NCBI GenBank assembly: GCA_034521595.1
Contig: JAXHMG010000003.1
Coordinates: 2,464,001 to 2,528,000 of the forward strand
DNA length: 64,000 nucleotides
Direction of reading: 5' to 3'
Source of the DNA: Gemmatimonadota bacterium
GTDB lineage: Bacteria; Gemmatimonadota; Gemmatimonadetes; Longimicrobiales; Gaopeijiaceae
Part shown: piece after piece, positions 17,559 through 36,329 of the stretch
Layout: each line of letters opens with the position of its first letter
Position numbering within the stretch: the stretch's first letter is position 1
The notes under the pieces: generated by a model
The model's input: the letters and a program-made list of their open reading frames with translations, nothing else
Databases searched by the model: none
Told to the model about the DNA's origin: nothing
Translations under genes and position numbers: made by a program

Positions 17559-18944
17559 TCAGCAGGTACCGAGAATAAAGCAGTTCGAAACCCGCTCACC
17601 CTGACCGATCACGAACACCTGACCGGGATTGGTGACGGCATCGGACGTGCTGCTCCAGCGCGGGGCGGTCACACCGAAGCGGTACATGTCCCACAACCGA
17701 CGCGTGACCATGTTGTACAGGTTCACGCGCCGCTCGTGCTGGAGAACCTCCAACGGCTCGGGATGGAGGGGGTTGTCGACATCATACTCGTCATGCGGAT
17801 GATCCGGATTCTTCATGGCCCGCACGTGGTTCAGATGCGTCTCGGCGATATCGTCCTCACCGTCGGCGATGGCCGCCTCGGCCAGGATCAGGTGGAGCTC
17901 CCTGGCCGTGACGACGTCGACTTCGGGGTAGAGGAACGCATCCACGAACTCCGTGATGCGCGCCTGGAGCGCCTGGTCCGGCATGTCGTCGATCGGGTCG
18001 AGCAGCGAGATCGCCGCTTCATCCGTATCGCCGTCGCCGTCGGCATCGTCCTCATCCTGCGCAACCGACTTTCCGCTCCCACTGATCACGACGTACTCGT
18101 CGGCCGGCACGAACTCCTGCCGGGAGTTCACCCAGGACCCCTGGGGGCTTTCGCTCGTCGACGATTGGAAGCGGAATCGGTATGCCCAATCCTCGTCCAC
18201 TCCGATCGCGTCGATCACGTCCTGAGCGTAACCATTGGCGGTCGCGTCGTTCACCAGCGGATCCGCCGTCGGGTCACCCTGCATCTTGGGCCACATGGCC
18301 CGCCCCCAGTGCGCGCGAGCCAACAGCGCGCGGATGGTGGTCGCGTCGCTGCCGCTCGCGAGCGCGAGCGCCGACTCGAGCCGGTCGATCGCGGTATCGT
18401 AGACCGACTGCATGTTGTCTTCGCCGACCGGCGGCCCCACCTCGATGCGGTCGGAGAACGCGAAGTCCTCCATGTTGTCCGCGATCGTCATGTGCATGAT
18501 GCCGGAGTACATGTTGGCGCGCATGACTTGCTCATCGTCCGCGCCGAACTCCACCGCGAGGCGCAGCGCCTCTTCGGCCGTCCAGGTCGCTTCCGCGAAT
18601 ACGTCGGTGAGAGCGTCACTTCGCCCGGACGGCGTCGTGATGATTCCCCGGTCGAGCTCGGCCGCCCAGTTCTGGGAGCCGGTATGCGTGAGCTCGTCGC
18701 TCAGGGCCGTCGTCGAGACGGCCGCGTCTCCGACCGCCTCCGAGGTGAGCTGCAACGCCCCGTTGACCAGGGCCGAAACCGCCTCCGCGTTCTCGAGGTC
18801 CGACTGAACCACGTTGTTGGGGTTTTCTACGTCTAGCAAGCTGTCACAGCCGGTCGCGCCCACGGCGAATGCCGCAGTCAGAAGCCCCGCGCTCAGGCGG
18901 TTCAGCTTCCGCCGGCTTTTGTAGCCAGTTTGTACGGATTGCAT
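17559..18944 (-). CDS. SusD/RagB-like surface lipoprotein
   Basis: Lipobox ATGC followed by DSLLDVENPN; ELHLILAEAA, LNHVR, ERRVNLY and RLWDMYRFG SusD-type C-terminal motifs; directly downstream of SusC. Confidence 0.85.
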   Translation of the reverse strand: MQSVQTGYKSRRKLNRLSAGLLTAAFAVGATGCDSLLDVENPNNVVQSDLENAEAVSALVNGALQLTSEAVGDAAVSTTALSDELTHTGSQNWAAELDRGIITTPSGRSDALTDVFAEATWTAEEALRLAVEFGADDEQVMRANMYSGIMHMTIADNMEDFAFSDRIEVGPPVGEDNMQSVYDTAIDRLESALALASGSDATTIRALLARAHWGRAMWPKMQGDPTADPLVNDATANGYAQDVIDAIGVDEDWAYRFRFQSSTSESPQGSWVNSRQEFVPADEYVVISGSGKSVAQDEDDADGDGDTDEAAISLLDPIDDMPDQALQARITEFVDAFLYPEVDVVTARELHLILAEAAIADGEDDIAETHLNHVRAMKNPDHPHDEYDVDNPLHPEPLEVLQHERRVNLYNMVTRRLWDMYRFGVTAPRWSSTSDAVTNPGQVFVIGQGERVSNCFILGTC

Positions 18945-18961
18945 ATGAGATTCTCCGTTGA

Positions 18962-21900
18962 TCAGAAGCCGATACGAACGCTGAACGTGTAGCGCGTGGG
19001 CACACCCGGACGCCAACCGTCGATGCCGTACACGAAGTTGCTCGTGTCACCACTCGGGCTCGTGACGACGTTGCTCTCCGGATCGATGCCGGAATACTTC
19101 GTCCACAGCTTCAGGTTACGGCTCGCAGCCGTGACGGTCATGCGGTCGATGCCGAGGCCTTCGATGGCCGAACCCGGGACCTGATAGGTCAGGCCGAGCT
19201 CACGCCACCGGATGTAATCGGCCTCCTCGATCTTGTTCGTTCCGTCCCAAGGAGACAGCCCCGCGTGCTCTCGCCACTCGTTCGCGGCCGCCACCTTTTC
19301 GTCCGGTGACGCGTCCGGATTCGTGAGCGTGGACTCGATCTCCGCCGTCTCCCGGGTGTTCCGCCCCAACAGCCAGTGGGAGGCGCGGAACTCGCCGCTC
19401 AGGTTCTGGCGATGGAAGTTGCCGAACGCGTAGTCGAATTGAGTGGTCAGGCGGAAGCTTCCCAGAAAGGAGAGCGTCCCTCCGAAGGAGCCCGACCAAT
19501 CCGGCATGGGCTTTCCTCGGAAGAACTCACCGTCCGGCCCTTGACCACCCGTCGCCGGGAGAAACGCGAGATCGTCGGGGCTCACCGAGGGATTGTCCAC
19601 GAAGAACTGCCGCAGCTCGTCCTCGGAGTCCGGTTGGCCGTCATTGTCGTTGTCGTAGGCAGTCTCACCGGCCTGCGGCTCATAGATCTTGCGGCTGAAG
19701 AACGAGCCCGGTGCGTGCCCCTCCACGATCCACGTCCGGTACCGATAATACCCGACCTTGATCGCGGGGGCCTCGCCCATGTCCGTGACCTCTTCCTCGG
19801 TGTACGCAGCGTTCACGAACATGTCGAAGCCGGCGTTCGACGTGTTGAACAGCGTGCCGTTCATCCCGAGCTCGAATCCGGTCGCCTTCATCTCACCCAG
19901 GTTGAAGAGCTGGGTCGACGTGAAGCCACCCGACGGCGGGAACTGCCGCGGGACCAGCACGTCGCTGACCGTTCTGTCCCAGTACGTCGCGTCGAGCGAG
20001 AAACGGTCGTCCAGAATACCGAAGTCGCCACCGACCTCCCACTCGGTCGAAACCTCCGGCCTCAGGTCTTCATTACCGAGGTTGTCCGGCCCCACGCCGG
20101 GGCCTTCCACCGAGGGAACCGGTTGGAACGTGGTGAACTGGTCGAAAGCGCCGGGCTGCAATCCGGACCGTCCGACCGCTGCACGGAACCGGACCGAGCT
20201 GAACGGCCCGATACCGTCCATGCCGGCCATATCGGTCGGCACGACCGACACACTGACCTTCGGGTACAGCTCTCCGCCCGCGGTCTCACCGAACGCGCTA
20301 TGCTTGTCGTACCGCGCGCCGAGCGTGGTGAAGATGAAGTTGTTGAAGCCCAGCTGTTCCTGGACGTAGACTCCGGCGTTCACCTCCTGGTTGACCGTCT
20401 CGCCCGCGCTCGGCTCGGAAGCCGCCCCCGTGACCTCGAGGCCCGGTGCAGGAAATGCGAACCCGCTGCTGAAGTTCTCGTGGTACTCGTTTTGGAGGAG
20501 CTGCGCGCCCAGGATGAACGACGACGTGATATTTTCGGTCAACTCGTTGTCGTACACCGCCTTCGCGTCGAATGTGATGTTCCGCCGGTTGTGCGTGCTG
20601 AAGTCGCGCTCGCCCTCGGGGGCGGTGTTGGCGAAGTCATCGACGTTCCAACCGAAGCGCTGAAAGTCGATCTCCTCCGACGACACGATGTCCACGCCGA
20701 TGGTCGCATCCAGCGTCAGTCCCTCGAGCGGATTGTACTGCGTGTTGACGCTTCCGGCGAACCGCTTGGTCTCTTCGAACTGCTCGATGTTGAACATCTC
20801 GCGGATCGTCGCGAAGGTCCCCGTTCCCGTCGGGTTGTTCTCCCGAGCGAGCTCCGGCTTCGCCATGATCGACATGGAGAAGGTTCCGGTCGTGTTGTTC
20901 CCGTTGGTCGGGACTTCGTGGTAGCGCTCGGTATACATCGAGTTGAAGCGCAACCGGAGATCTTCGGTCGGGAAGAAGGTCAGATTGGCGGTCGCCTGCT
21001 TCTGCTCGTCGACATCCTGAGCCGGACCCCACTGCTCACCGCCGAAGGCGCCGTCCTCGTAGGCGTACCGGCCGGAGACGTAGTAGTTGATGGATTCGGT
21101 ACCGCCACGCACCGACAGGCTGTAGGCCTGGTTGAATCCGGTTTCGAAGAGCCCGTCGAGCAGCGGCGTGTCGAAGACCTCGTACCGACCGAGGGAACCG
21201 AGCCCCCAGTGGTCCGCAACGGCGTCCGCGTGCTCCTGACTGCATCCATCGCCCGGCCACAGAGCCGAGCCGGCCTGGCTGCAAACGAAGCCGGAGTGCT
21301 GCGCGTACCGCTCCATCGGCATCTGAGAGAAGCCGCCCTCGGCGGTCATCTCCCACTGCGGGTCCCCTGCCTGGCCCCGCTTGGTGAAGATCTGGATGAC
21401 CCCGTTGGACGCTTCGGTCCCGTACAGGGTGGCGGCCGCCGCACCCTTCAGGATCTCCACCCGCTCGATCGACTCGGGGTTGATGTCATCGAGGCGGGAC
21501 GCCGCGCCCGCGTCTCCGTCGTCCACGGCGTTAGAGACCCTGATGCCGTCGACGTAGACGATCGGGTTGTTGCTCTGGGTGAGCGACGAGGTGCCACGGA
21601 TACGGATCTCGGAACCTTCACCGGCCATGCCGCCGCTCTGTGCGACCGACACCCCGGCGGTGCGCCCCTGCAACTGCTCGGAGAAGTTCGCCGTGGGCGC
21701 GTCCTGGAGCTGCTCCATGTCAACCGCCGAAACGGTGTTGCCGAGACGGCGACGCTCGGTGGCCTGCCCGGCCCCGGTAATGACGAGCTCGTCGAGCTGA
21801 ACCGCGCTCGTGGAGAGCTCGAAGTCGAGCTGGGCGGTCTCACCGTCCGCGACCGTCACGGTCTGCTCGGCCGAGCCGTAACCCACGCGGTCCACCGAGA

Positions 21901-22150
21901 CGGTGACCTCGCCGGCCGGCACCTCGAGAAGAAGGTAACGCCCGGACGAGTTGGTGAGCGTCCCGAGGCTCGTGCCTTCGACGAAAACCTGCACGGCATC
22001 GAGCGGGCGCATGCTACTGCCGTCGACCACGGTACCCGTGATCGACCCTTGCTGCGCGGCCACGGCGCCCGGCAAGAACGCCAGGACGGCGGCCGTCAGC
22101 AACGCCCGTGATTGCCCTCGTGCTGCTTGGACAAACGCGTCATGAAACAT
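18962..22150 (-). CDS. SusC/RagA-like TonB-dependent outer membrane transporter
   Basis: CarboxypepD_reg-like N-terminus; LDELVITG TonB box; plug signature DINPESIERVEILKGAAAATLYGTEASNGVIQIFTK; C-terminal RIGF; RBS GGGAGG before ATG 22150. Confidence 0.93.
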   Translation of the reverse strand: MFHDAFVQAARGQSRALLTAAVLAFLPGAVAAQQGSITGTVVDGSSMRPLDAVQVFVEGTSLGTLTNSSGRYLLLEVPAGEVTVSVDRVGYGSAEQTVTVADGETAQLDFELSTSAVQLDELVITGAGQATERRRLGNTVSAVDMEQLQDAPTANFSEQLQGRTAGVSVAQSGGMAGEGSEIRIRGTSSLTQSNNPIVYVDGIRVSNAVDDGDAGAASRLDDINPESIERVEILKGAAAATLYGTEASNGVIQIFTKRGQAGDPQWEMTAEGGFSQMPMERYAQHSGFVCSQAGSALWPGDGCSQEHADAVADHWGLGSLGRYEVFDTPLLDGLFETGFNQAYSLSVRGGTESINYYVSGRYAYEDGAFGGEQWGPAQDVDEQKQATANLTFFPTEDLRLRFNSMYTERYHEVPTNGNNTTGTFSMSIMAKPELARENNPTGTGTFATIREMFNIEQFEETKRFAGSVNTQYNPLEGLTLDATIGVDIVSSEEIDFQRFGWNVDDFANTAPEGERDFSTHNRRNITFDAKAVYDNELTENITSSFILGAQLLQNEYHENFSSGFAFPAPGLEVTGAASEPSAGETVNQEVNAGVYVQEQLGFNNFIFTTLGARYDKHSAFGETAGGELYPKVSVSVVPTDMAGMDGIGPFSSVRFRAAVGRSGLQPGAFDQFTTFQPVPSVEGPGVGPDNLGNEDLRPEVSTEWEVGGDFGILDDRFSLDATYWDRTVSDVLVPRQFPPSGGFTSTQLFNLGEMKATGFELGMNGTLFNTSNAGFDMFVNAAYTEEEVTDMGEAPAIKVGYYRYRTWIVEGHAPGSFFSRKIYEPQAGETAYDNDNDGQPDSEDELRQFFVDNPSVSPDDLAFLPATGGQGPDGEFFRGKPMPDWSGSFGGTLSFLGSFRLTTQFDYAFGNFHRQNLSGEFRASHWLLGRNTRETAEIESTLTNPDASPDEKVAAANEWREHAGLSPWDGTNKIEEADYIRWRELGLTYQVPGSAIEGLGIDRMTVTAASRNLKLWTKYSGIDPESNVVTSPSGDTSNFVYGIDGWRPGVPTRYTFSVRIGF

Positions 22151-22420
22151 AGGGCCTCCCCTATCAAGGAGTGGTTGGGCCATGCTCGGCCCTTCGGTTA
22201 CAGGCGGTCGCTCACCGCCCGAGCTGTGTACCTCGAGTACCTGCACGTGGGCACGCGACCCGCACCCAGCTCTGGGAGCCTCGAGTGTCGAGTGCGCGCA
22301 GCGCGGATCACCCGGTGCGCAGCTTTGGCTCTGGAAGCGGCTGTGTCAAGGAATCGTGCAGAGCAACGCACGGGGACCGGAGCTATCGATCGGACGCATG
22401 CCCGTCGACCCTCCGTGCCA

Positions 22421-22760: not shown

Positions 22761-22795
22761 AAAAAGGCCCGGGAGCCGCTGTGCGGCCCCCGGGC
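22761..22795 (-). terminator. Rho-independent terminator after tRNA-Lys
   Basis: Minus strand GCCCGGGGGCCGC-ACA-GCGGCTCCCGGGC followed by CTTTTT. Confidence 0.8.
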
Positions 22796-22931: not shown

Positions 22932-23324
22932 TCACGGTGAGGGGCCGTCACCGGCATCGTCCCGAAGCAAGGAGGCTCCCGGCTGGAGCGCTCGCGCCCG
23001 GTCGAGTGCCTCCGCGGCGGCGCTGTCGTTGCCGAGTGCCCCTTCCGCCATGTACACGCCGAACCAAGCCGCGGCGACCGCGTCGTCGATCTCGACGGCA
23101 CGCCGGTAATGCTCCACGGCCGCCTCGGGCGCTCCGGACCGCATCGCGACGTTCCCGCTGTCGAGTTGGGAGACCAGGGCCTGTGGCAAGGCGTCTCTCG
23201 CCTCCCGCACGGCGTCCGGCGTAACCGAATCCGTGCGCTGATCATCCTCGCGACATCCCCCGAAGACCACGATGACCGCGACGATCGCCATGACGCTACG
23301 GAGCGCACGAACCTGCTCGAGCAT
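22932..23324 (-). CDS. TPR-like lipoprotein; last gene of the cytochrome operon
   Basis: Lipobox FGGC; helical TPR-like segment (AVEHYRRAVEIDDAVAAAWFGVYMA); starts 3 bp after the cytochrome stop. Confidence 0.7.
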   Translation of the reverse strand: MLEQVRALRSVMAIVAVIVVFGGCREDDQRTDSVTPDAVREARDALPQALVSQLDSGNVAMRSGAPEAAVEHYRRAVEIDDAVAAAWFGVYMAEGALGNDSAAAEALDRARALQPGASLLRDDAGDGPSP

Positions 23325-23327
23325 TAG

Positions 23328-24776
23328 TCAGGATCCTCCCACCGGGTTACCCACGTGACACGCGAGACATGTTCGCGGCGAAGTCGCCCACGCACGCTCC
23401 GCGTCGAACGACGGACCATGCGGGCTGACCCTGAACGAGCCCAGAACCCCGTGACACTGCACGCAGTCGCGTTGTTGGTGGCACGAAGCGCAGCTCTCCA
23501 GGTTCTGCCGGGCCGCCTGTCCGTGGCGAAGGAGCCAGACGGGCTCGGCGTCGTGGTACCCGGATCCGAGTCGGCCGGAGCTCTCGAATCCGCTTTCCAG
23601 ATGGCAGGCGCGACAGAATGCGGCCGTTTCGTGGCAGGTAGCGCACTCGTCCGCGCGACCGAACGCAGCGGCCGCGTGCGTCCCCACGAAATCCGCGGGG
23701 TGATAGCTGTCCCCGGCGGGAGCGTCGTGACAGTCCGTGCAGTACCCGTCGGTGTGGCAAGTGCCGCACGTCGATTCGTCGGCCGCCGCCAGAGTCGAAT
23801 GAGCCTCCATGAAGAACGGCGACTCGTGGGTCCCCGGAGCCGACGCGGTGAGCCCCACGCCTGGAGCGTGCACGTCGGCACGCCTCGGCAGGGCGTCGAC
23901 CACGGCCGGCGCCGCGCTCACGTGACACGCCCGACAGTCCTCGGTCGTGTGGCAGGTGTTGCAGGATCCGGCATCGGACACGGGAGCGTGTCGTTCGCTC
24001 CATCGCGCTCGAGAATGTGACTCGGGAACCGGATAGGCCGCGGTCACCGGTGGGAGCTCGAGGTCGGGGGGGGCGGAGGGCATGGCCGCCACTGCGGGTT
24101 GGCCCGCATCCACGTGACAGGAGACGCACCGCTCTTCGGTATGGCACGTCGCACACCGGGCTGTGCCCTCCGAGGCGGAGGCGCCGTGGTCGCTCGCGAC
24201 GAATCCCCCGGTCAGGTGATCCCTCGGAACCGGAAGGCCGGTGATGCGCTCTACGGAGAAGCGACTGTCCGACAGTGGGACGTGACACATGGCACATTCA
24301 GCCGTGCCTTCGGGGACGGACTCGAAGTGACCGTCCGGCTCGCCGGCATGGCATGCGAAGCATGCGCTTTCGACCACCCGAGCCTCGACGTCCATGCGCG
24401 CGGCATCCGGCTCCGCGTGACAGCTCTCGCAGCTTCGGGGCGGCTCCCCCGCCGTCTCGAGATCCGCCGCGTGCGTGGCATGGTCGAATAGGACGTTGCT
24501 CGAGGTGTCGCTCGGCCCGGACCAGGATACCGCCGGGAGATCCACGTCGTCGTGACAACGGGCGCAGAGCTCCGCCTCCGGGTAGCCGGGAGCATCCCCG
24601 GCAGCGGGGGTGGTGTGGCATCCGGTGCAGACCGGGAAGAGTCCCGCGTGTTCCTCGTGGGGGAAGGGCTCCTCCTGGACGCTGCCGACCCCGGCCGATA
24701 CGACGCCCGTCAGAGCCACCGCGCCCACCACACCGACGCCGAGCGCGCCCAGCCGCAAGCTTCGAATCACGCTCAT
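23328..24776 (-). CDS. Secreted 16-heme c-type cytochrome
   Basis: 16 CxxCH motifs; N-terminal signal/hydrophobic stretch; ATGA overlap with the porin stop. Confidence 0.92.
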   Translation of the reverse strand: MSVIRSLRLGALGVGVVGAVALTGVVSAGVGSVQEEPFPHEEHAGLFPVCTGCHTTPAAGDAPGYPEAELCARCHDDVDLPAVSWSGPSDTSSNVLFDHATHAADLETAGEPPRSCESCHAEPDAARMDVEARVVESACFACHAGEPDGHFESVPEGTAECAMCHVPLSDSRFSVERITGLPVPRDHLTGGFVASDHGASASEGTARCATCHTEERCVSCHVDAGQPAVAAMPSAPPDLELPPVTAAYPVPESHSRARWSERHAPVSDAGSCNTCHTTEDCRACHVSAAPAVVDALPRRADVHAPGVGLTASAPGTHESPFFMEAHSTLAAADESTCGTCHTDGYCTDCHDAPAGDSYHPADFVGTHAAAAFGRADECATCHETAAFCRACHLESGFESSGRLGSGYHDAEPVWLLRHGQAARQNLESCASCHQQRDCVQCHGVLGSFRVSPHGPSFDAERAWATSPRTCLACHVGNPVGGS

Positions 24777-26194
24777 CGCTGACCACCGCGTCGTCCGGAC
24801 AGACCCGGGTCTTCGCCCAACGTGACACGCAGCGACGACCACCCACGGTTCTGACTCCATGGCCGGTCGCCGCCATCGTCCGCATATCGATGCCGAAGCA
24901 CCGAGTAACCGCCCCGGAAGGAGAGGCGGTCCGTCAGTTGGGTGCCCGCCGACACACCGCCTCCCCATGCGCGCCCGTCACCGAGCCGGTACTGCTCGAT
25001 TTGCTGGAGCGTACGGGCGGAAATCGTGACGAACGTGTCGTCGGACGGCGTCCACGCCAGCCGGGTCTCGCCCGACGACAGGTAGCCGCCGGGGCCCCAT
25101 TCGAGCTCGTATGACACACCCGCGGACCAGGCGTCGCCCGGCGTCCACGTCGCTTCCAGGCCTGCGCGGCGTCCGCTGTCCTCGAGCGGTCTCAGAACGA
25201 CCGTCGTGCCCGCGGCTCCGTATCGTCGGACTCCGACGGATCCCTCGACCCGCCACGCATCCCGCGGAGCCCAGCCGACGCGGACCGTGCCTTCGGTATA
25301 GGCGACCGGCTCGAACAGGCCCCAGATGGTGGAAAGAGAGAAATACGGAACGTACCGGGCCGCCGATGCCTCGATCATGCCGCGAGCTCCGTCGAACGGA
25401 CGGGACAGGGTGAGGTGCCCCTTGCCGACCTCCCGCCGGGCGACATCGTAGTCCAACGAGCCCCGGAGCGTCCCGACGGACGAGCTCCAGCTCATATCCA
25501 GCGACGCGCGTTCCGAAGCGAGCCCGGAACGGTCGGCGAGGATCTCGCGGTGGTAGCGGGCCGTCATCGACAGGGCCGAGATGCGTCCGCGGGCGGATGC
25601 ACCAACGAGGTACACACTCTGGTCCGGCAGGAAATCCTCCAGGCCTCGCAACGCCTCATGGGCGGGATCGCGCAATCCCCTGGCGAGACTCCGTCCGCCG
25701 TATGCTTCAACCCGGATCCGGGGTCGGCTCCAGCGCACCATGCCACCGTCGAAGGACGGGAAGCCGAGTCCCGAACGCACTTCCTGACGCCCCACGCGCA
25801 CGGTGAGCTCTCCCCGCGCCAACGCCGCGTAAGCGAGCATGGCGTCGAAGGGATCGTCGGCCCGCGGCCATTCGAAGGCTCCTGCGACACGCTGTCGGGC
25901 ACGGAGCTGAACGGTCGCGCTCAGCCCCTGGACGCCCAGCCCCCAGGCGGTGAAAAAGAGGTCCTGGTTCGCGACGACCGCCAGCTCTTGATCCGCGCTC
26001 GTGTAGCACGGAGCGTCCGACGGACACGTGGCGGCGACCCGCTGGACCGGCCGCATGTCGACGAGCTGAGCCGAAGACCCGACCCACCCTCGGCCCTTCT
26101 GAGCCTCCGCTTCACCAGCAGCCCCCCCGGCGAGGGCCGCAACCGCAGCGATGCACCCGACCCACCGCCACGATGCGCCGACGCGGGGGCGCAC
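24773..26194 (-). CDS. Predicted outer-membrane beta-barrel (porin of a porin-cytochrome complex)
   Basis: Signal peptide ending AEA-Q; many alternating amphipathic strands rich in G/R/aromatics (e.g. LTVRVGRQ, WSAGVSYELEW, LSFRGGYSV); sits between cytochrome genes; RBS AGGAAGG before GTG 26194. Confidence 0.72.
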   Translation of the reverse strand: MRPRVGASWRWVGCIAAVAALAGGAAGEAEAQKGRGWVGSSAQLVDMRPVQRVAATCPSDAPCYTSADQELAVVANQDLFFTAWGLGVQGLSATVQLRARQRVAGAFEWPRADDPFDAMLAYAALARGELTVRVGRQEVRSGLGFPSFDGGMVRWSRPRIRVEAYGGRSLARGLRDPAHEALRGLEDFLPDQSVYLVGASARGRISALSMTARYHREILADRSGLASERASLDMSWSSSVGTLRGSLDYDVARREVGKGHLTLSRPFDGARGMIEASAARYVPYFSLSTIWGLFEPVAYTEGTVRVGWAPRDAWRVEGSVGVRRYGAAGTTVVLRPLEDSGRRAGLEATWTPGDAWSAGVSYELEWGPGGYLSSGETRLAWTPSDDTFVTISARTLQQIEQYRLGDGRAWGGGVSAGTQLTDRLSFRGGYSVLRHRYADDGGDRPWSQNRGWSSLRVTLGEDPGLSGRRGGQR

Positions 26195-26211
26195 GACCGC
26201 ATCCTTCCTGC

Positions 26212-27936
26212 TCAAGGGGCCCCCACCCGGAACCCCGGACCGGTCATTGCGTGGCATTCCGCGCAATCGCCTTCGGGGCGGTGGTCGCGCTGATCCTGAT
26301 GGCAGACCAGACAGACGGAACGGGTCCGCTCGACGCTCTCGAACGGCGCATCCTGGTGGCAGCCGCTCCCGCCACACCCCACGTGCGCCGTTTCCACGCT
26401 ATGTGCATCCGGCGCGGCGGGCTCGTGGCACGACGCACAGTCGTTACCCGGATCATGGTGCGCCTCGTGACACGACGCGCAGTCCGCGCCGCTCGCGGAG
26501 CGGGTTGGATCATCCGTGTGGCAGGTCGCGCAGCGCTCGCCGGCATGGACGGCATGATCGAACGGGAGGCCGCGTCCGGGGCGCTCTCCGACGGACAACA
26601 CGAGCGTTCGCGTCACCTCCAGGGTCTCGGAGGTGCCGCCCGTCTCGGCATGGCACGTGGCGCAGTCTCCGGCCTCCGGCTCGGTATGATGACAGCTTCG
26701 GCAGTCCGTCACGGTCGTGACCGTGAGCGACCCGTGCTCGGGCTCACTCGCATGGCACGCGGCGCACTCGACGTCCCGGTGCTCGGTATGCTCGAACGGG
26801 GGCTCTTCCTGGCGGGCAGCGCTCGGGCTCCGGGAAGGCGAGACGGTCGTGGGGGACGAGCCGAGCGCCGCATGCGCGGCAAGGAGAACCGCGTCGCTCC
26901 GGGTGGATCCGGCGGCACTCCCCACGGTTCCGGGGTGGGGGCGCGTGCCGGATGGATTCCCGGCCCCGGCCGACGTTTCCGTGTCATCGAAAATGTCCGT
27001 GTGGCACGCGAGGCAGTTGTCGCCGTCCACGTGAAAATCGTGGGCCTGGTGACAATACATGCAATCCGAGGCCACCCCTTCGTCCAGACCCCGGTGAAAG
27101 GGTGTGAGCGCTTCAGCGTCCGTGTGACACCCGGCGGACGCACAGCTCTCGGCAGCCTCTTCGGGCGTCGCCTGCTCGTGGGGATTGTGACACGATGCGC
27201 AGGTGCCCTCGTGCGGATCGTCGTCCGGCATCGTCGCCATCGCCTGCATGGCGTGGCAGGAAAGGCACGTATCCTCGTTCGGGGCGAGCGCGGCCAACGC
27301 CGCTTCCGAACCCTCGGCGTCCACGGTCGTGTTGAAGCCGTGACAGGCCGCGCAGTGGATCGTCAGGTCACTCATTCCCCCGAGCTCGATCCCGGTGTCC
27401 TCGTGACATCCGGCTTGCGCGCACGTCCGGTCGCTCGCCGCGAACTCGTGCAGCGAGCTCGAATGGCACTCCACGCACTGCAACCCTTGAAGCGCGGGGT
27501 CGTCGGATTCGAGGTGCGCCCGGTGGCCCGCTGTCGCCGCCACGACCTCCCATCGCTCGGGGTCGCCCTCGATGTGGCAGTCGGCGCACAACCCGTTCGG
27601 CACTTCGGCGTGCACTGAAATCTCGTCGGGATTCTCGACGAACTGGGTGAGCCCCATGCGGCTCCGCTCGATCAGGTTCGGCTGATGGCAGTCCTTACAG
27701 CTGAGATCCTGGTGGGCGCTCCGGGCGAACCGTTCGTACGGTTCCGCCATGAGATGGCACGACAGACAGAAATCGTTGTCGTGCTCGACGAAGTCGTAGG
27801 TCTGGTAGGCGTAGTAACTCCCGGTCCCGGCCAGCGCCACCACGAGCACGCCCACGCCCGCGAGCGTAGGCAGCGACAACGTGGCGAGCCACCGGGCAAT
27901 ACGGCCCCGAGCCGGAGGAGGAGGGTCCGGAGGCAT
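26212..27936 (-). CDS. Membrane-anchored NapC/NirT-type cytochrome extended to 20 hemes
   Basis: N-terminal TM helix, then FCLSCHLM; 17 CxxCH + 3 CxxxxCH motifs. Confidence 0.9.
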   Translation of the reverse strand: MPPDPPPPARGRIARWLATLSLPTLAGVGVLVVALAGTGSYYAYQTYDFVEHDNDFCLSCHLMAEPYERFARSAHQDLSCKDCHQPNLIERSRMGLTQFVENPDEISVHAEVPNGLCADCHIEGDPERWEVVAATAGHRAHLESDDPALQGLQCVECHSSSLHEFAASDRTCAQAGCHEDTGIELGGMSDLTIHCAACHGFNTTVDAEGSEAALAALAPNEDTCLSCHAMQAMATMPDDDPHEGTCASCHNPHEQATPEEAAESCASAGCHTDAEALTPFHRGLDEGVASDCMYCHQAHDFHVDGDNCLACHTDIFDDTETSAGAGNPSGTRPHPGTVGSAAGSTRSDAVLLAAHAALGSSPTTVSPSRSPSAARQEEPPFEHTEHRDVECAACHASEPEHGSLTVTTVTDCRSCHHTEPEAGDCATCHAETGGTSETLEVTRTLVLSVGERPGRGLPFDHAVHAGERCATCHTDDPTRSASGADCASCHEAHHDPGNDCASCHEPAAPDAHSVETAHVGCGGSGCHQDAPFESVERTRSVCLVCHQDQRDHRPEGDCAECHAMTGPGFRVGAP

Positions 27937-27959: not shown

Positions 27960-29390
27960 TCACCGACTCCCTCGGACCTCGCTCGAGCGTGCCGGAGCAC
28001 CGAGGCCGTACCTAGACTCCACCTCGTCGATCGTGGCTTGGAGCAATGCCTCGATGAGGAACGGGTTGTGCACCGCCGCCCCAGGCGAGCGCGCGAGCTC
28101 GAGGTTGAACTGCGCCCCTTCACCCACCGTGTACCGGTCGTCCGTCTCGTCGAACTCGCTTTCGGGGATCTGAGCGATGAGGGATTCGAGATCGTCGGCG
28201 TCGCCGGCGATCCGGTTCTCTGCATTGATTTGCAGGTTACGGGCAACGTCCGCGGACCCGTGGCAACCCGAAGCCGTGCACCCCTGGTAGGAGCGTTCCT
28301 CCGGCTGACATCCGTCCGCGCCGGTGGGGATGCCGTCCGCGTCCACGCATGGCGTCGCCTCGAACGAGTGCCCCGTCGACTGGAAGACGAGCTCCTCCGT
28401 GTCCTGGTCGACGATCTCGAACGACTGCACGTGACACGACGCGCAGAGGCCCGGGTTCGCTTCCGGAGTCCCGTGCGTGCCGACGAGGCGCCCGCCCGGG
28501 AAGCTCATATCGGACGGCCACCATCCGGCCACGCCGAGCAGCGTGGGGCCCTCCGGAGCATGCGGGCCCCGGAACGTGGTGGGATCGGGGGTCCCGCGCT
28601 TGTTGTGGCACATCATGCAAAGGTTCTGATCTTCGTTCGGCACGTTCGTGGCGAACCTGAGCTGCGCCGGGTTGTCCGAGCCGTGAGGATCGTGACAGAC
28701 CGCGCAGGTGATCGAAAGGTGCTCACCGTCTTCTGCGACGTCGTCCTGTTCGAGGTACGTGGTGTTCACCCCGAACATCTCGAGGGCACCCTCGCCCGTG
28801 TGGCAACTGGAACAATCCGCTCTACCGGCCGGATAGGAGTTGAACTGTCCGTGGCCGGATTCCGACCATTCGTCGGCGAACGGATGGTGCGCGCCCTGAT
28901 GGCACTCGGCGCAGCCACTGGTGAGATCCAATCCCACGTCCATGGGAGCGGAGGGGACCGTGGCATCGTTCGGGTCCTCGACGTGAGCGAGCCCTGGGCC
29001 GTGACACGCCTCACACTGAACGTCCTCGTAGCGCGCTTCACCGGTCGCTGCGTGTCCCATCGTGCCCGTGGTCACGTTCCCCAGCTCGCCCACCGTGTGG
29101 CAGCCTTCGCAAAAGCCCTGGGCGTGCCCGCTGTCCTGCAGGCCATCCCAGGCCGACGCGTGGGCGGTTTCGACCCAGTCCTGCTGCGTGCCGATGTGGC
29201 AGTTGCCGCAGACCGTGAGCTTGTCATCGCTGTCGCTGTAGCCGAGAAAGGACCCGGCGGCGTCGAGCGGATCTTCGAACAGCTCACGGTCCCGGAAGAC
29301 CACTTGCTCGTCGACGCAAGCGGCGGTCGCGACGAGGGAGCCGGCAACGATGCTCAACAAGGCCACGCGCATGATTCGAGTCGGCATCAT
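27960..29390 (-). CDS. 9-heme c-type cytochrome lipoprotein
   Basis: Lipobox TAAC; 8 CxxCH + CTASGCH; helical C-terminus with AVHNPFLIEALL. Confidence 0.9.
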   Translation of the reverse strand: MMPTRIMRVALLSIVAGSLVATAACVDEQVVFRDRELFEDPLDAAGSFLGYSDSDDKLTVCGNCHIGTQQDWVETAHASAWDGLQDSGHAQGFCEGCHTVGELGNVTTGTMGHAATGEARYEDVQCEACHGPGLAHVEDPNDATVPSAPMDVGLDLTSGCAECHQGAHHPFADEWSESGHGQFNSYPAGRADCSSCHTGEGALEMFGVNTTYLEQDDVAEDGEHLSITCAVCHDPHGSDNPAQLRFATNVPNEDQNLCMMCHNKRGTPDPTTFRGPHAPEGPTLLGVAGWWPSDMSFPGGRLVGTHGTPEANPGLCASCHVQSFEIVDQDTEELVFQSTGHSFEATPCVDADGIPTGADGCQPEERSYQGCTASGCHGSADVARNLQINAENRIAGDADDLESLIAQIPESEFDETDDRYTVGEGAQFNLELARSPGAAVHNPFLIEALLQATIDEVESRYGLGAPARSSEVRGSR

Positions 29391-35540: not shown

Positions 35541-36101
35541 CTACCAGTCGGGGCTCTCCTCGGCCTCCAGGTTCCGAAGCGCGTCGCGTAGCCGCTCCTG
35601 GTCCTTCTCGTCCAAATCGGCCGGATCGGAGATGGTCGCCGGCCGCTCCCGCTTGGTCGCCCCGTTGCGTATGAGCAGGCCGACCAACATCCCGATGCTG
35701 AGGATGCCGATGGCCGGAAGGAAGTAACCGACGAGGTTGAAGCCTTCCCGCGGCGGCGACATGAGCACGGACGTTCCGAAGTCCGAGACGAAGCTCGCCT
35801 GGATGGCTTCGACGCTTTCGCCTCGCTCCAGTGCCTCCCGGATACGGGTGGACCAGACCGGAGACGTGCCGCACTGCATCTGGAACTGACAGGAGTGCAC
35901 GTCCAAGCCACAACCGCAGCTGCACTTCAACGCGCTCTCGAGGACCATGAGCTTCTCGCCCACCTCACCCACGTGGTAGTGCCCGCCCGTGGGCGCATCC
36001 GGGTCGAAGCCGGGATGGGAAGGGCCGGTCGACTGGGCCTGCGCGGGAACGGAAAGAACCGCGAGCGCGGTCAATCCCGCCGCGAACGTCGAAAGCTTCA
36101 T
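35541..36101 (-). CDS. ccmH: CcmH/NrfF-like cytochrome c biogenesis protein (Cys-rich variant)
   Basis: Signal peptide; LKCSCGC; IREALERGES..FVSDFGTSVLMSPP..GFNL followed by a TM helix. Confidence 0.75.
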   Translation of the reverse strand: MKLSTFAAGLTALAVLSVPAQAQSTGPSHPGFDPDAPTGGHYHVGEVGEKLMVLESALKCSCGCGLDVHSCQFQMQCGTSPVWSTRIREALERGESVEAIQASFVSDFGTSVLMSPPREGFNLVGYFLPAIGILSIGMLVGLLIRNGATKRERPATISDPADLDEKDQERLRDALRNLEAEESPDW

Positions 36102-36329
36102 GGTTGGCTCAAGTCCTGAGTGGTCGATTCCATGCCGAACTTTTCGGTTCTCCGTAACCGAAAGGGGAGCCGACGTTCCGGTCGCGCCCCGGAGCACGCT
36201 TACACGGCGGCGGCGACGGGCCCCCTGCGACGCCGCGACGTCCGAAACGATTGCCCCGAACGCTCGCACGGGTTACTTAATGGCCTCCCCGAACCGATAT
36301 CCGAAACCGTTACGACACTGGGACGCGAC

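Follow-up and report, generated by a model that had tools for sequence, protein, structure and literature searches.

A 20-heme membrane cytochrome with a leashed nonaheme head in the operon of a candidate porin-cytochrome conduit of Gemmatimonadota

I analysed a DNA stretch of 64,000 nucleotides (hereafter the window) from the Gemmatimonadota bacterium assembly GCA_034521595.1 (Longimicrobiales, Gaopeijiaceae; contig JAXHMG010000003.1, positions 2,464,001-2,528,000 of the forward strand), in which one open reading frame (ORF) encodes a 20-heme membrane-anchored cytochrome, labelled B20 in this study. It was found that B20 is a real and conserved variant of two known kinds, the extended NapC/NirT-type membrane cytochrome and the porin-cytochrome cluster. 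On balance, B20 is probably the inner-membrane entry of a porin-cytochrome conduit, where menaquinol would be oxidised and from which electrons would pass via an 11-heme stalk and a leashed head to a barrel-bound 16-heme cytochrome, D16. The system stands out by a leashed connector that can be swapped, by a modified quinol pocket and by the presence of an OcwA-type partner in a diderm. The parts of B20 are as follows, in window positions.

26212..27936, minus strand: B20, 20-heme membrane-anchored cytochrome, ORF of 574 amino acids
27781..27873, minus strand: N-terminal membrane helix, residues 22-52, predicted to be uncleaved (AlphaFold2 (AF2) helix, NrfH alignment, leaders of homologues)
27442..27780, minus strand: NapC/NirT-type tetraheme domain, residues 53-165, with an atypical quinol pocket (R91, M94, Q98)
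27001..27441, minus strand: hemes 5-11, c7-like stalk, residues 166-312 (tight, conserved motif spacing)
26797..27000, minus strand: disordered linker, residues 313-380
26251..26796, minus strand: C-terminal nonaheme head, residues 381-562 (a separate protein elsewhere)

B20 has 17 CxxCH and three Cx4CH motifs, which together use all of its 40 cysteines; 2000 shuffled versions of the protein had 0.21 CxxCH motifs on average and three at most. The motifs are ordered as four plus seven, then the linker, then nine. The initial annotation had read this anatomy correctly, from the N-terminal helix and the first heme motif FCLSCHLM (CLSCHLM, C57-M63) to the S/G/P/A-rich linker and the last nine hemes. 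The c3/c7-like F-x-H-x-x-H motifs that it had pointed out also hold among 139 aligned rows, F381-x-H383-x-x-H386 being invariant and F459/H461/H464 at least 90% conserved. A second CxxCHxM motif lies at heme 7 (M230). The AF2 model has a mean predicted local distance difference test score (pLDDT) of 75 and a predicted template modelling score (pTM) of 0.54. The size per heme, ~3.0 kDa, fits the 'peptide-minimised' class of electron-transfer proteins (PMC7096707, section 7). The public record of B20 (P0001) starts 19 residues downstream of the ORF start used here; Met occupies the column of the longer start in 100 of the 120 aligned rows described below.

Is the fusion real? The homologue search gave 785 proteins from 7995 scored candidates, and the best 120 of the 785, which cover 88-100% of B20, were used for alignment; the taxon-labelled ones all belong to Gemmatimonadota. 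Exactly 17+3 motifs were found in 117 of the 120 aligned rows (B20 and 119 homologues), and the motif spacing is near-constant, the linker excepted. Among 301 sampled Gemmatimonadota genomes, 109 have a B20 match at E<=1e-20, although some of the matches are limited to the head module. From these 109, 20 loci were picked for long contigs and spread. At least 80 further loci, distinct from the 20, exist among the matches listed, and 70 of the 80 considered here carry all 20 motifs within one ORF. The other ten comprise four cut by contig ends, two with 11 hemes only, two split by frame, one with 21 hemes and one with 19. Thus the fusion is conserved in homologues, a point that the initial annotation had wished to see checked, and the 117 rows and 70 single-ORF loci rule out an assembly artefact.

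The linker is 68 residues long with 54% S/G/P/A, and its pLDDT in the AF2 model is below 50 over residues 324-372. Aligned B20-type sequences from genome loci (90 rows, 87 of them distinct) have 15 to 170 residues between motifs 11 and 12, with a median of 76. The linker was considered as a possible second membrane helix or internal cleavable signal, and both were rejected, as the best 12-residue hydropathy has a median of 1.07 and reaches 1.6 or more in only 7 of 85 rows. Gln directly precedes the head in 58 of the 90 rows, as it does at the start of free head copies; as a weak lead from the alignment, this Gln may be the remnant of a signal peptide.

The N-terminal domain had been proposed to be of the NapC/NirT type, with a PF03264 search as the check. 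Residues 19-168 alone score 37.9 bits against a cut-off of 24.1, and all 70 homologous N-terminal domains match at E<=0.001, which bears out the proposal; full-length B20 scores only 18.1 bits, under the same cut-off. NrfH is the top solved relative of B20 by single sequence (E 7.6e-4) and by profile (E 9.3e-11, or 1.3e-7 with the N-terminal domain alone). It also came first in a Foldseek search, weakly (E 0.048, probability 0.99), and in VIA-align, where it was likewise the top match, NrfH 14-153 was placed on the model from B20 residue 28 (Z 5.1, root-mean-square deviation 5.0, 127 residues). The spacing of the first four hemes is NapC-like, as had been noted, but shortened, with gaps between hemes 2 and 3 against the NrfH profile. 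The hydrophobic helix of the AF2 model spans residues 22-52, and the block of residues 11-50 has pLDDT 90-97. Heme 1 is preceded by more than 100 residues in 17 of 20 diverse homologues, and 16 of the 20 show an extra upstream hydrophobic segment (two in all). These leaders and the NrfH alignment running through the helix rule out a cleaved signal peptide and argue for an uncleaved membrane anchor. The NapC/NirT match, the uncleaved anchor and the conserved fusion are each the opposite of an outcome that the initial annotation had named as fatal to its reading.

B20 was found in a tight minus-strand operon of the order A9, B20, barrel, D16, E, with 45 heme motifs in total. It is the sole cluster in the genome with more than five hemes per protein. 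The initial annotation, sound on the protein itself, had left out this context: the barrel, 16-heme and OcwA-like genes, as well as the existence of the head as a separate protein. The other features of the operon are as follows.

27960..29390, minus strand: nonaheme lipoprotein A9, OcwA/OmhA-like, first operon gene (nine motifs, profile matches)
24773..26215, minus strand: outer-membrane beta-barrel, predicted 22 strands, plug-less (AF2 and fold match)
23328..24776, minus strand: secreted 16-heme cytochrome D16, c7/c3-like N-terminus, paired-motif repeats (start overlaps the barrel stop)
22932..23324, minus strand: small tetratricopeptide repeat (TPR) lipoprotein E, last operon gene
22767..22795, minus strand: terminator-like hairpin ending the operon, 13 pairs of which 12 are G-C, T tail

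A9 has an invariant C25 behind a hydrophobic leader, and its profile matches (6QVM, E 2.4e-17; 6I5B, E 1.1e-14) suggest that it resembles the surface reductases OmhA and OcwA. The barrel ORF starts at TTG 26215, overlapping the B20 stop, or at GTG 26194. Its AF2 model has 22 long strands (pLDDT 89, pTM 0.83), and the fold matches the barrel part of a TonB-dependent receptor without the plug (Z 18.7) and MtrB (Z 16.8). In an atlas look-up, the nearest clusters were unnamed and the nearest named ones were outer-membrane barrels. None of 21 barrel members has an NCBIfam family, and their Pfam barrel matches are few, weak and scattered. The operon also stands apart from MtrCAB, MtoAB and PioAB, since none of the 21 barrel homologues matches PF11854 (MtrB/PioB) at E<=0.1 and the partner D16 has 16 motifs and no TIGR03508 match. 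A barrel gene lies beside periplasmic multiheme genes all the same, which is the general mark of a porin-cytochrome conduit. A promoter scan of the operon found none, and there was no RNA data set among the sequencing runs listed. The hairpin is backed by position alone, because two such sites were found against 2.3 expected in shuffles.

The four genes A9, B20, barrel and D16 are present in this order in all of the 20 picked loci, two of them with an insertion and one with a fragmented first gene. In the 80 further loci, the barrel lies downstream of B20 in 65, a contig ends in four, and 11 have no barrel nearby. The barrel occurs in 131 of the 301 genomes, among them all 109 with a B20 match. 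Since related genomes are not independent, these counts show conservation and are no statistical test. Two of the 80 records carry labels other than Gemmatimonadota: L120 is given as Krumholzibacteriota and has the full operon, and L123 is given as Betaproteobacteria and lies on a 4.8 kb contig.

How would the conduit work? The NapC/NirT-type domain would oxidise menaquinol, and the electrons would run along the 11-heme stalk to the nine-heme head on its flexible leash. The head is predicted to hand them to D16, which would thread the barrel, and A9 may be the terminal reductase at the surface, acting on Fe(III), humics or an electrode, with electron flow outward. The linker is free of heme and would thus be a leash, keeping a periplasmic connector close to the enzyme, and the leashed head would fill the role of the free shuttles in Shewanella. 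In the genome, which is 93% complete, menB scores above its cut-off with an adjacent UbiA-family gene, MqnA of the futalosine route was not found, and two cytochrome c assembly genes are present.

The initial annotation had gone further and pictured B20 as a tethered wire that could span the periplasm and replace soluble shuttles; that B20 alone would span it is doubtful. About 27 hemes are cited for a periplasm of ~200 A, at ~7.4 A per heme (PMC7096707, section 7); scaled from this source, the stalk is ~8 nm, the head 6.5 nm and both 15 nm, and stalk, head and D16 make ~27 nm, although part of D16 would lie in the barrel. Since 20 hemes fall short of ~27 and the linker cannot conduct, B20 alone probably does not span the gap. 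At 3.5 A per residue in an extended chain, the linker could stretch over more than 20 nm, without a cofactor. The gap would close only if part of D16 projects into the periplasm, or if the head swings between partners. Most likely the head bridges the stalk and D16, either at once or by swinging.

Several observations weigh against this mechanism, and they bear on reach, on the quinol site and on gene content. As for reach, 11 of the 90 rows have linkers of only 15-36 residues; therefore a long reach is not required. As for the quinol site, the structural match to NrfH is weak alone, the Z of VIA-align being under the tool's own reliable level. The reference pocket lysines are NrfH Lys82, CymA Lys91 and ImcH Lys173, and the distal heme 1 site is held by NrfH Asp89 and ImcH Gln179; the pocket lysine is described as shared in the family (10.1101/2022.01.10.475773, available in part, as are the sources marked 'in part' below). 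No conserved Lys was found in B20-type proteins at the Lys82 position, where the B20-NrfH profile alignment has a gap, and the same alignment places Met94 of B20 on Asp89. Across the 90 rows the pocket positions differ between clades, the Met94 position being Met in 50, Gln in 34, Glu in four and Lys in two. In an alternative register, read by eye from the Lys-to-Asp spacing, Arg91 would correspond to Lys82 and Gln98 to Asp89. Arg91 is present in all of the 120 close rows but in only 50 of the 90 diverse ones, and Gln98 in 40; to judge from the alignment, Arg91 may substitute for the pocket lysine in the B20 clade. With no counterpart of Lys82 or Asp89 in the profile alignment, the quinol site of B20 is thus atypical.

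The CxxCHxM motif at heme 1, which had been taken as the signature of a quinol site, proved to be overstated and non-diagnostic. Met63 is kept in 86 of the 90 rows and replaced by Phe in four, and the same motif is repeated at heme 7 and kept there in all 90. Elsewhere the Met is conserved in NrfH, found in only some NapC, absent from CymA and no ligand in ImoA (10.1101/2022.01.10.475773, in part). Might the N-terminal domain then perform no quinol chemistry and serve as an anchor and relay from an alternative complex III or a bc-type complex to the conduit? The missing counterparts and the variable pocket (R/S/Q at one position, M/Q/E/K at another) speak for such a relay, as does the loss of Met63 in the four rows. 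The N-terminal half also has 11 conserved spare His and three Met for 11 hemes, enough to close every iron, and an ActA-like pentaheme is present in the genome. However, B20 homologues strongly conserve both the initial HDNxF-CxxCHxM and the helix that follows heme 2, and Gln or Glu occupies the Met94 position in 38 of the 90 rows. A non-acidic distal residue has a precedent, because ImcH carries Gln at the distal heme 1 site; its heme 1 is predicted to be His/Gln, and it still accepts menadiol electrons (10.1101/2023.05.03.539133, in part). I regard the relay as improbable.

As for gene content, B20 has no barrel nearby in 11 of the 80 further loci, ten of which continue with a TPR gene and a monoheme cytochrome. 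Conversely, the barrel operon of L151 and L152 lacks B20 and consists of A9, barrel and D16 with no connector between them, and the head is absent in L106 and L114, which have the 11-heme half only and the other operon genes intact. The sole secretin found in the genome sits in a type IV pilus-like cluster (gene identities by eye), and the T2SSK match is only at the cut-off; therefore no clear export route would bring A9 to the surface. Nitrite and hydroxylamine, too, are substrates of OcwA (PMC7096707, in part). The loci without a nearby barrel, the lack of a clear export route and these activities of OcwA would suit a CymA-like hub or electron store, in which B20 oxidises quinol and the head serves several periplasmic partners, such as the monoheme lipoprotein or A9 as a periplasmic nitrite/hydroxylamine reductase, the link to the barrel being secondary; the failure to find NrfA in the 93%-complete genome leaves room for such a substitute. 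On the other side are the barrel's presence in every genome with a B20 match, its presence elsewhere in the genome in all five that were tested of the 11 loci with B20 outside the operon, and the start codons of the barrel and D16, which overlap the preceding stops. The hub is thus unlikely.

The B20 genes off the barrel operon that are followed by a TPR lipoprotein gene and a monoheme lipoprotein cytochrome gene are those of L073, L091, L099, L102, L107, L108, L112, L119, L123 and L124. In L099, L107, L108 and L124, a two-component system and an 11-heme protein follow the monoheme gene.

Is the head a module? In L036, L047 and L063, the head is encoded as a nonaheme protein of its own, leader included, directly before the barrel gene; L053 is a probable further case with a frame-shifted leader. 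A decaheme version of the head with a lipoprotein-like leader and spacer exists in L051, L052, L054, L074 and L153-L155, and in L051 and L153-L155 a separate copy directly precedes the barrel gene. In eight loci (L055-L062), a related head module forms the end of another NapC protein, one of 22 motifs, and the wide profile search gave many nonaheme proteins of 230-300 amino acids with leaders; five apparent free heads at contig ends (L064-L068) were left uncounted. Thus the head is a swappable module, free, lipid-anchored or carried on another NapC protein, and usually adjoining the barrel gene. A tree built by a quick method from 59 head modules has good support on 9 of its 56 inner branches, and in it the free copy of L063 nests within a set of fused heads supported at 98%. 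Fusion and fission therefore both seem to occur, and the order of events is not derivable from this tree. In L056, L059 and L062, the cluster around the 22-motif NapC gene is larger: it also encodes two Rieske/cytochrome b sets, membrane proteins with 11 and 19 hemes, a barrel of the same family and a 12-heme partner.

The separate head lies beside a nonaheme/Rieske/cytochrome b set in L036, L047, L051, L052, L054 and L074. Such pairings would allow either direction of electron flow, and they raise the question of inward flow, with an outside donor (Fe(II), reduced humics, a cathode or a partner cell) feeding A9 and the barrel, and the NapC-type domain reducing menaquinone. CymA-type proteins are present in Fe(III) reducers and Fe(II) oxidisers alike (PMC6295460, in part), and heme 1 could have a shifted potential owing to the changed pocket. 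Against this, the nearest relatives of A9 to have been characterised act as terminal reductases in Fe(III) reducers (PMC9250108, in part), and extended proteins of the ImcH type are reported from Fe(III) reducers only (PMC6295460, in part). Inward flow is therefore given little credence here, and the outward conduit remains the favoured reading.

The N-terminal half of B20 was also found alone in other phyla, and without the long linker in relatives with 10-34 hemes; 22 of 80 metagenome loci were examined. The 11-heme form lies directly after an MtrB/PioB porin gene in L165 (Pfam E 5.6e-48), and a 34-heme relative in L157 lies upstream of a gene for an MtrC-domain protein. Relatives with 30-34 hemes have more than the ~27 cited for a periplasm; as single chains that might span it, they are better candidates than B20. 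The Pfam match covers the porin of L165; in L166 a stand-alone 11-heme form likewise directly follows a gene taken for an MtrB/PioB porin. Proteins with the same N-terminal domain, contiguous hemes and no long linker include P0333, P0335 and P0359 (34 motifs), P0341, P0355, P0365, P0367 and P0375 (30 motifs) and P0320 (24), and proteins of this kind are found in loci L156 and L157. Stand-alone 12-heme forms occur near multihemes with C-terminal membrane anchors in L162-L164, L167-L170, L172-L174, L179-L181, L191 and L194; these loci have no barrel of the B20-operon family and may belong to organisms without an outer membrane.

Among known systems, NrfH of Desulfovibrio vulgaris (PDB 2J7A/2VR0) shares with B20 one N-terminal helix, a tetraheme core and CxxCHxM at heme 1, and it is the best match by sequence and fold, with weak fold scores. 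B20 differs in having 20 hemes instead of four, a shorter stretch after heme 2 and no counterparts of Lys82 and Asp89. An NrfH that serves NrfA was rejected as an identity for B20, since its TIGR03153 score of 45.4 bits is under the cut-off of 134.2 and a family search of the 93%-complete genome did not find NrfA (PF02335). An NrfH-like ORF is present outside the window (G000:C3:2124287-2124772), with three heme motifs, no space for heme 2 and an apparent internal deletion.

ImcH of Geobacter sulfurreducens resembles B20 in its NapC-like core extended by hemes, and it feeds extracellular electron transfer (10.1101/2023.05.03.539133 and PMC6295460, both in part); its distal Gln recurs in the 34 rows with Gln noted above. 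ImcH has three helices, seven hemes and an atypical CX3CH first motif, and its homologues have 6-10 hemes, two of them from Gemmatimonadetes (PMC6295460, in part). B20, compared with this partial description, has one helix (two in many homologues), a CxxCH heme 1 and 20 motifs. In the same sources ImcH hands electrons to soluble partners and is not reported beside mtrAB-type genes, whereas B20 has a tethered head and a barrel operon. The Shewanella system of CymA, STC/FccA and MtrCAB (PMC7096707) follows the same logic of quinol dehydrogenase, periplasmic carrier, porin-cytochrome and surface cytochrome. In the B20 system, dehydrogenase and carrier are one protein, the barrel has 22 predicted strands and is not of the MtrB/PioB family, and A9 is OcwA-like rather than MtrC-like.

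The ImdcA-PdcA-CwcA-OcwA system of Thermincola (PMC7911101, in part), together with OmhA (6QVM), likewise places a large multiheme of the inner membrane, its anchor uncleaved, upstream of a nonaheme terminal reductase of the OcwA type. By its description, however, this system is Gram-positive and without a barrel, with a decaheme inner-membrane protein (ImdcA) and a separate periplasmic decaheme. In the predicted porin-cytochrome clusters named PCC3, very large multihemes were proposed to connect both membranes (PMC5566968, in part); there, a five-helix b-type inner-membrane protein and a periplasmic multiheme are separate, while B20 is both in one chain. An 'mto-like' system was noted, with no detail, in one Gemmatimonas metagenome-assembled genome (PMC6137239, in part). 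No published description of B20 or its operon was found in a literature search that had most subscription journals and supplementary tables outside its scope, and the available parts of PMC13264449, PMC9671151, PMC9769843, PMC11495043, PMC11651109, PMC11475568 and 10.64898/2026.05.27.727921 do not describe B20.

Two neighbouring features of the window may be added. A CcmH-family cytochrome c maturation gene (PF03918, E 9.2e-10; 35541-36269, minus strand) lies ~6 kb upstream of the operon. Directly downstream is a SusC/SusD-like pair, by eye a TonB-dependent-receptor-like protein of 1094 amino acids and a lipoprotein (17559-22246, minus strand), which is not conserved beside the operon in the 20 picked loci.

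A wider proposal is put forward tentatively. Gemmatimonadota may have a leashed-connector solution of their own, in which a nine-heme module is held on the disordered tether of a quinol dehydrogenase whose quinol site is rebuilt, or exists as free or lipid-tethered copies fed by a bc-type complex. A new 22-strand barrel, a 16-heme insert and a surface enzyme of the OcwA type, so far Gram-positive, would complete a shuttle-free path from quinol to the surface in about one third of the phylum, while linker-less relatives with 30-34 hemes would span the periplasm as a single chain.

Standard family scans miss the barrel, and full-length B20 falls below the NapC/NirT cut-off. As far as is known, the crossing of the periplasm between a quinol dehydrogenase and an outer-membrane conduit is settled only for the soluble shuttles of the Shewanella type. 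The B20 family offers a natural series in which the connector is fused, with 15-170 residues of leash, or is free, anchored by a lipid or missing, alongside linker-less relatives with 10-34 hemes. Gemmatimonadota are common in soils and sediments, and they are usually regarded as heterotrophs that live aerobically. With a working conduit, they may contribute to the redox cycling of iron and humics.

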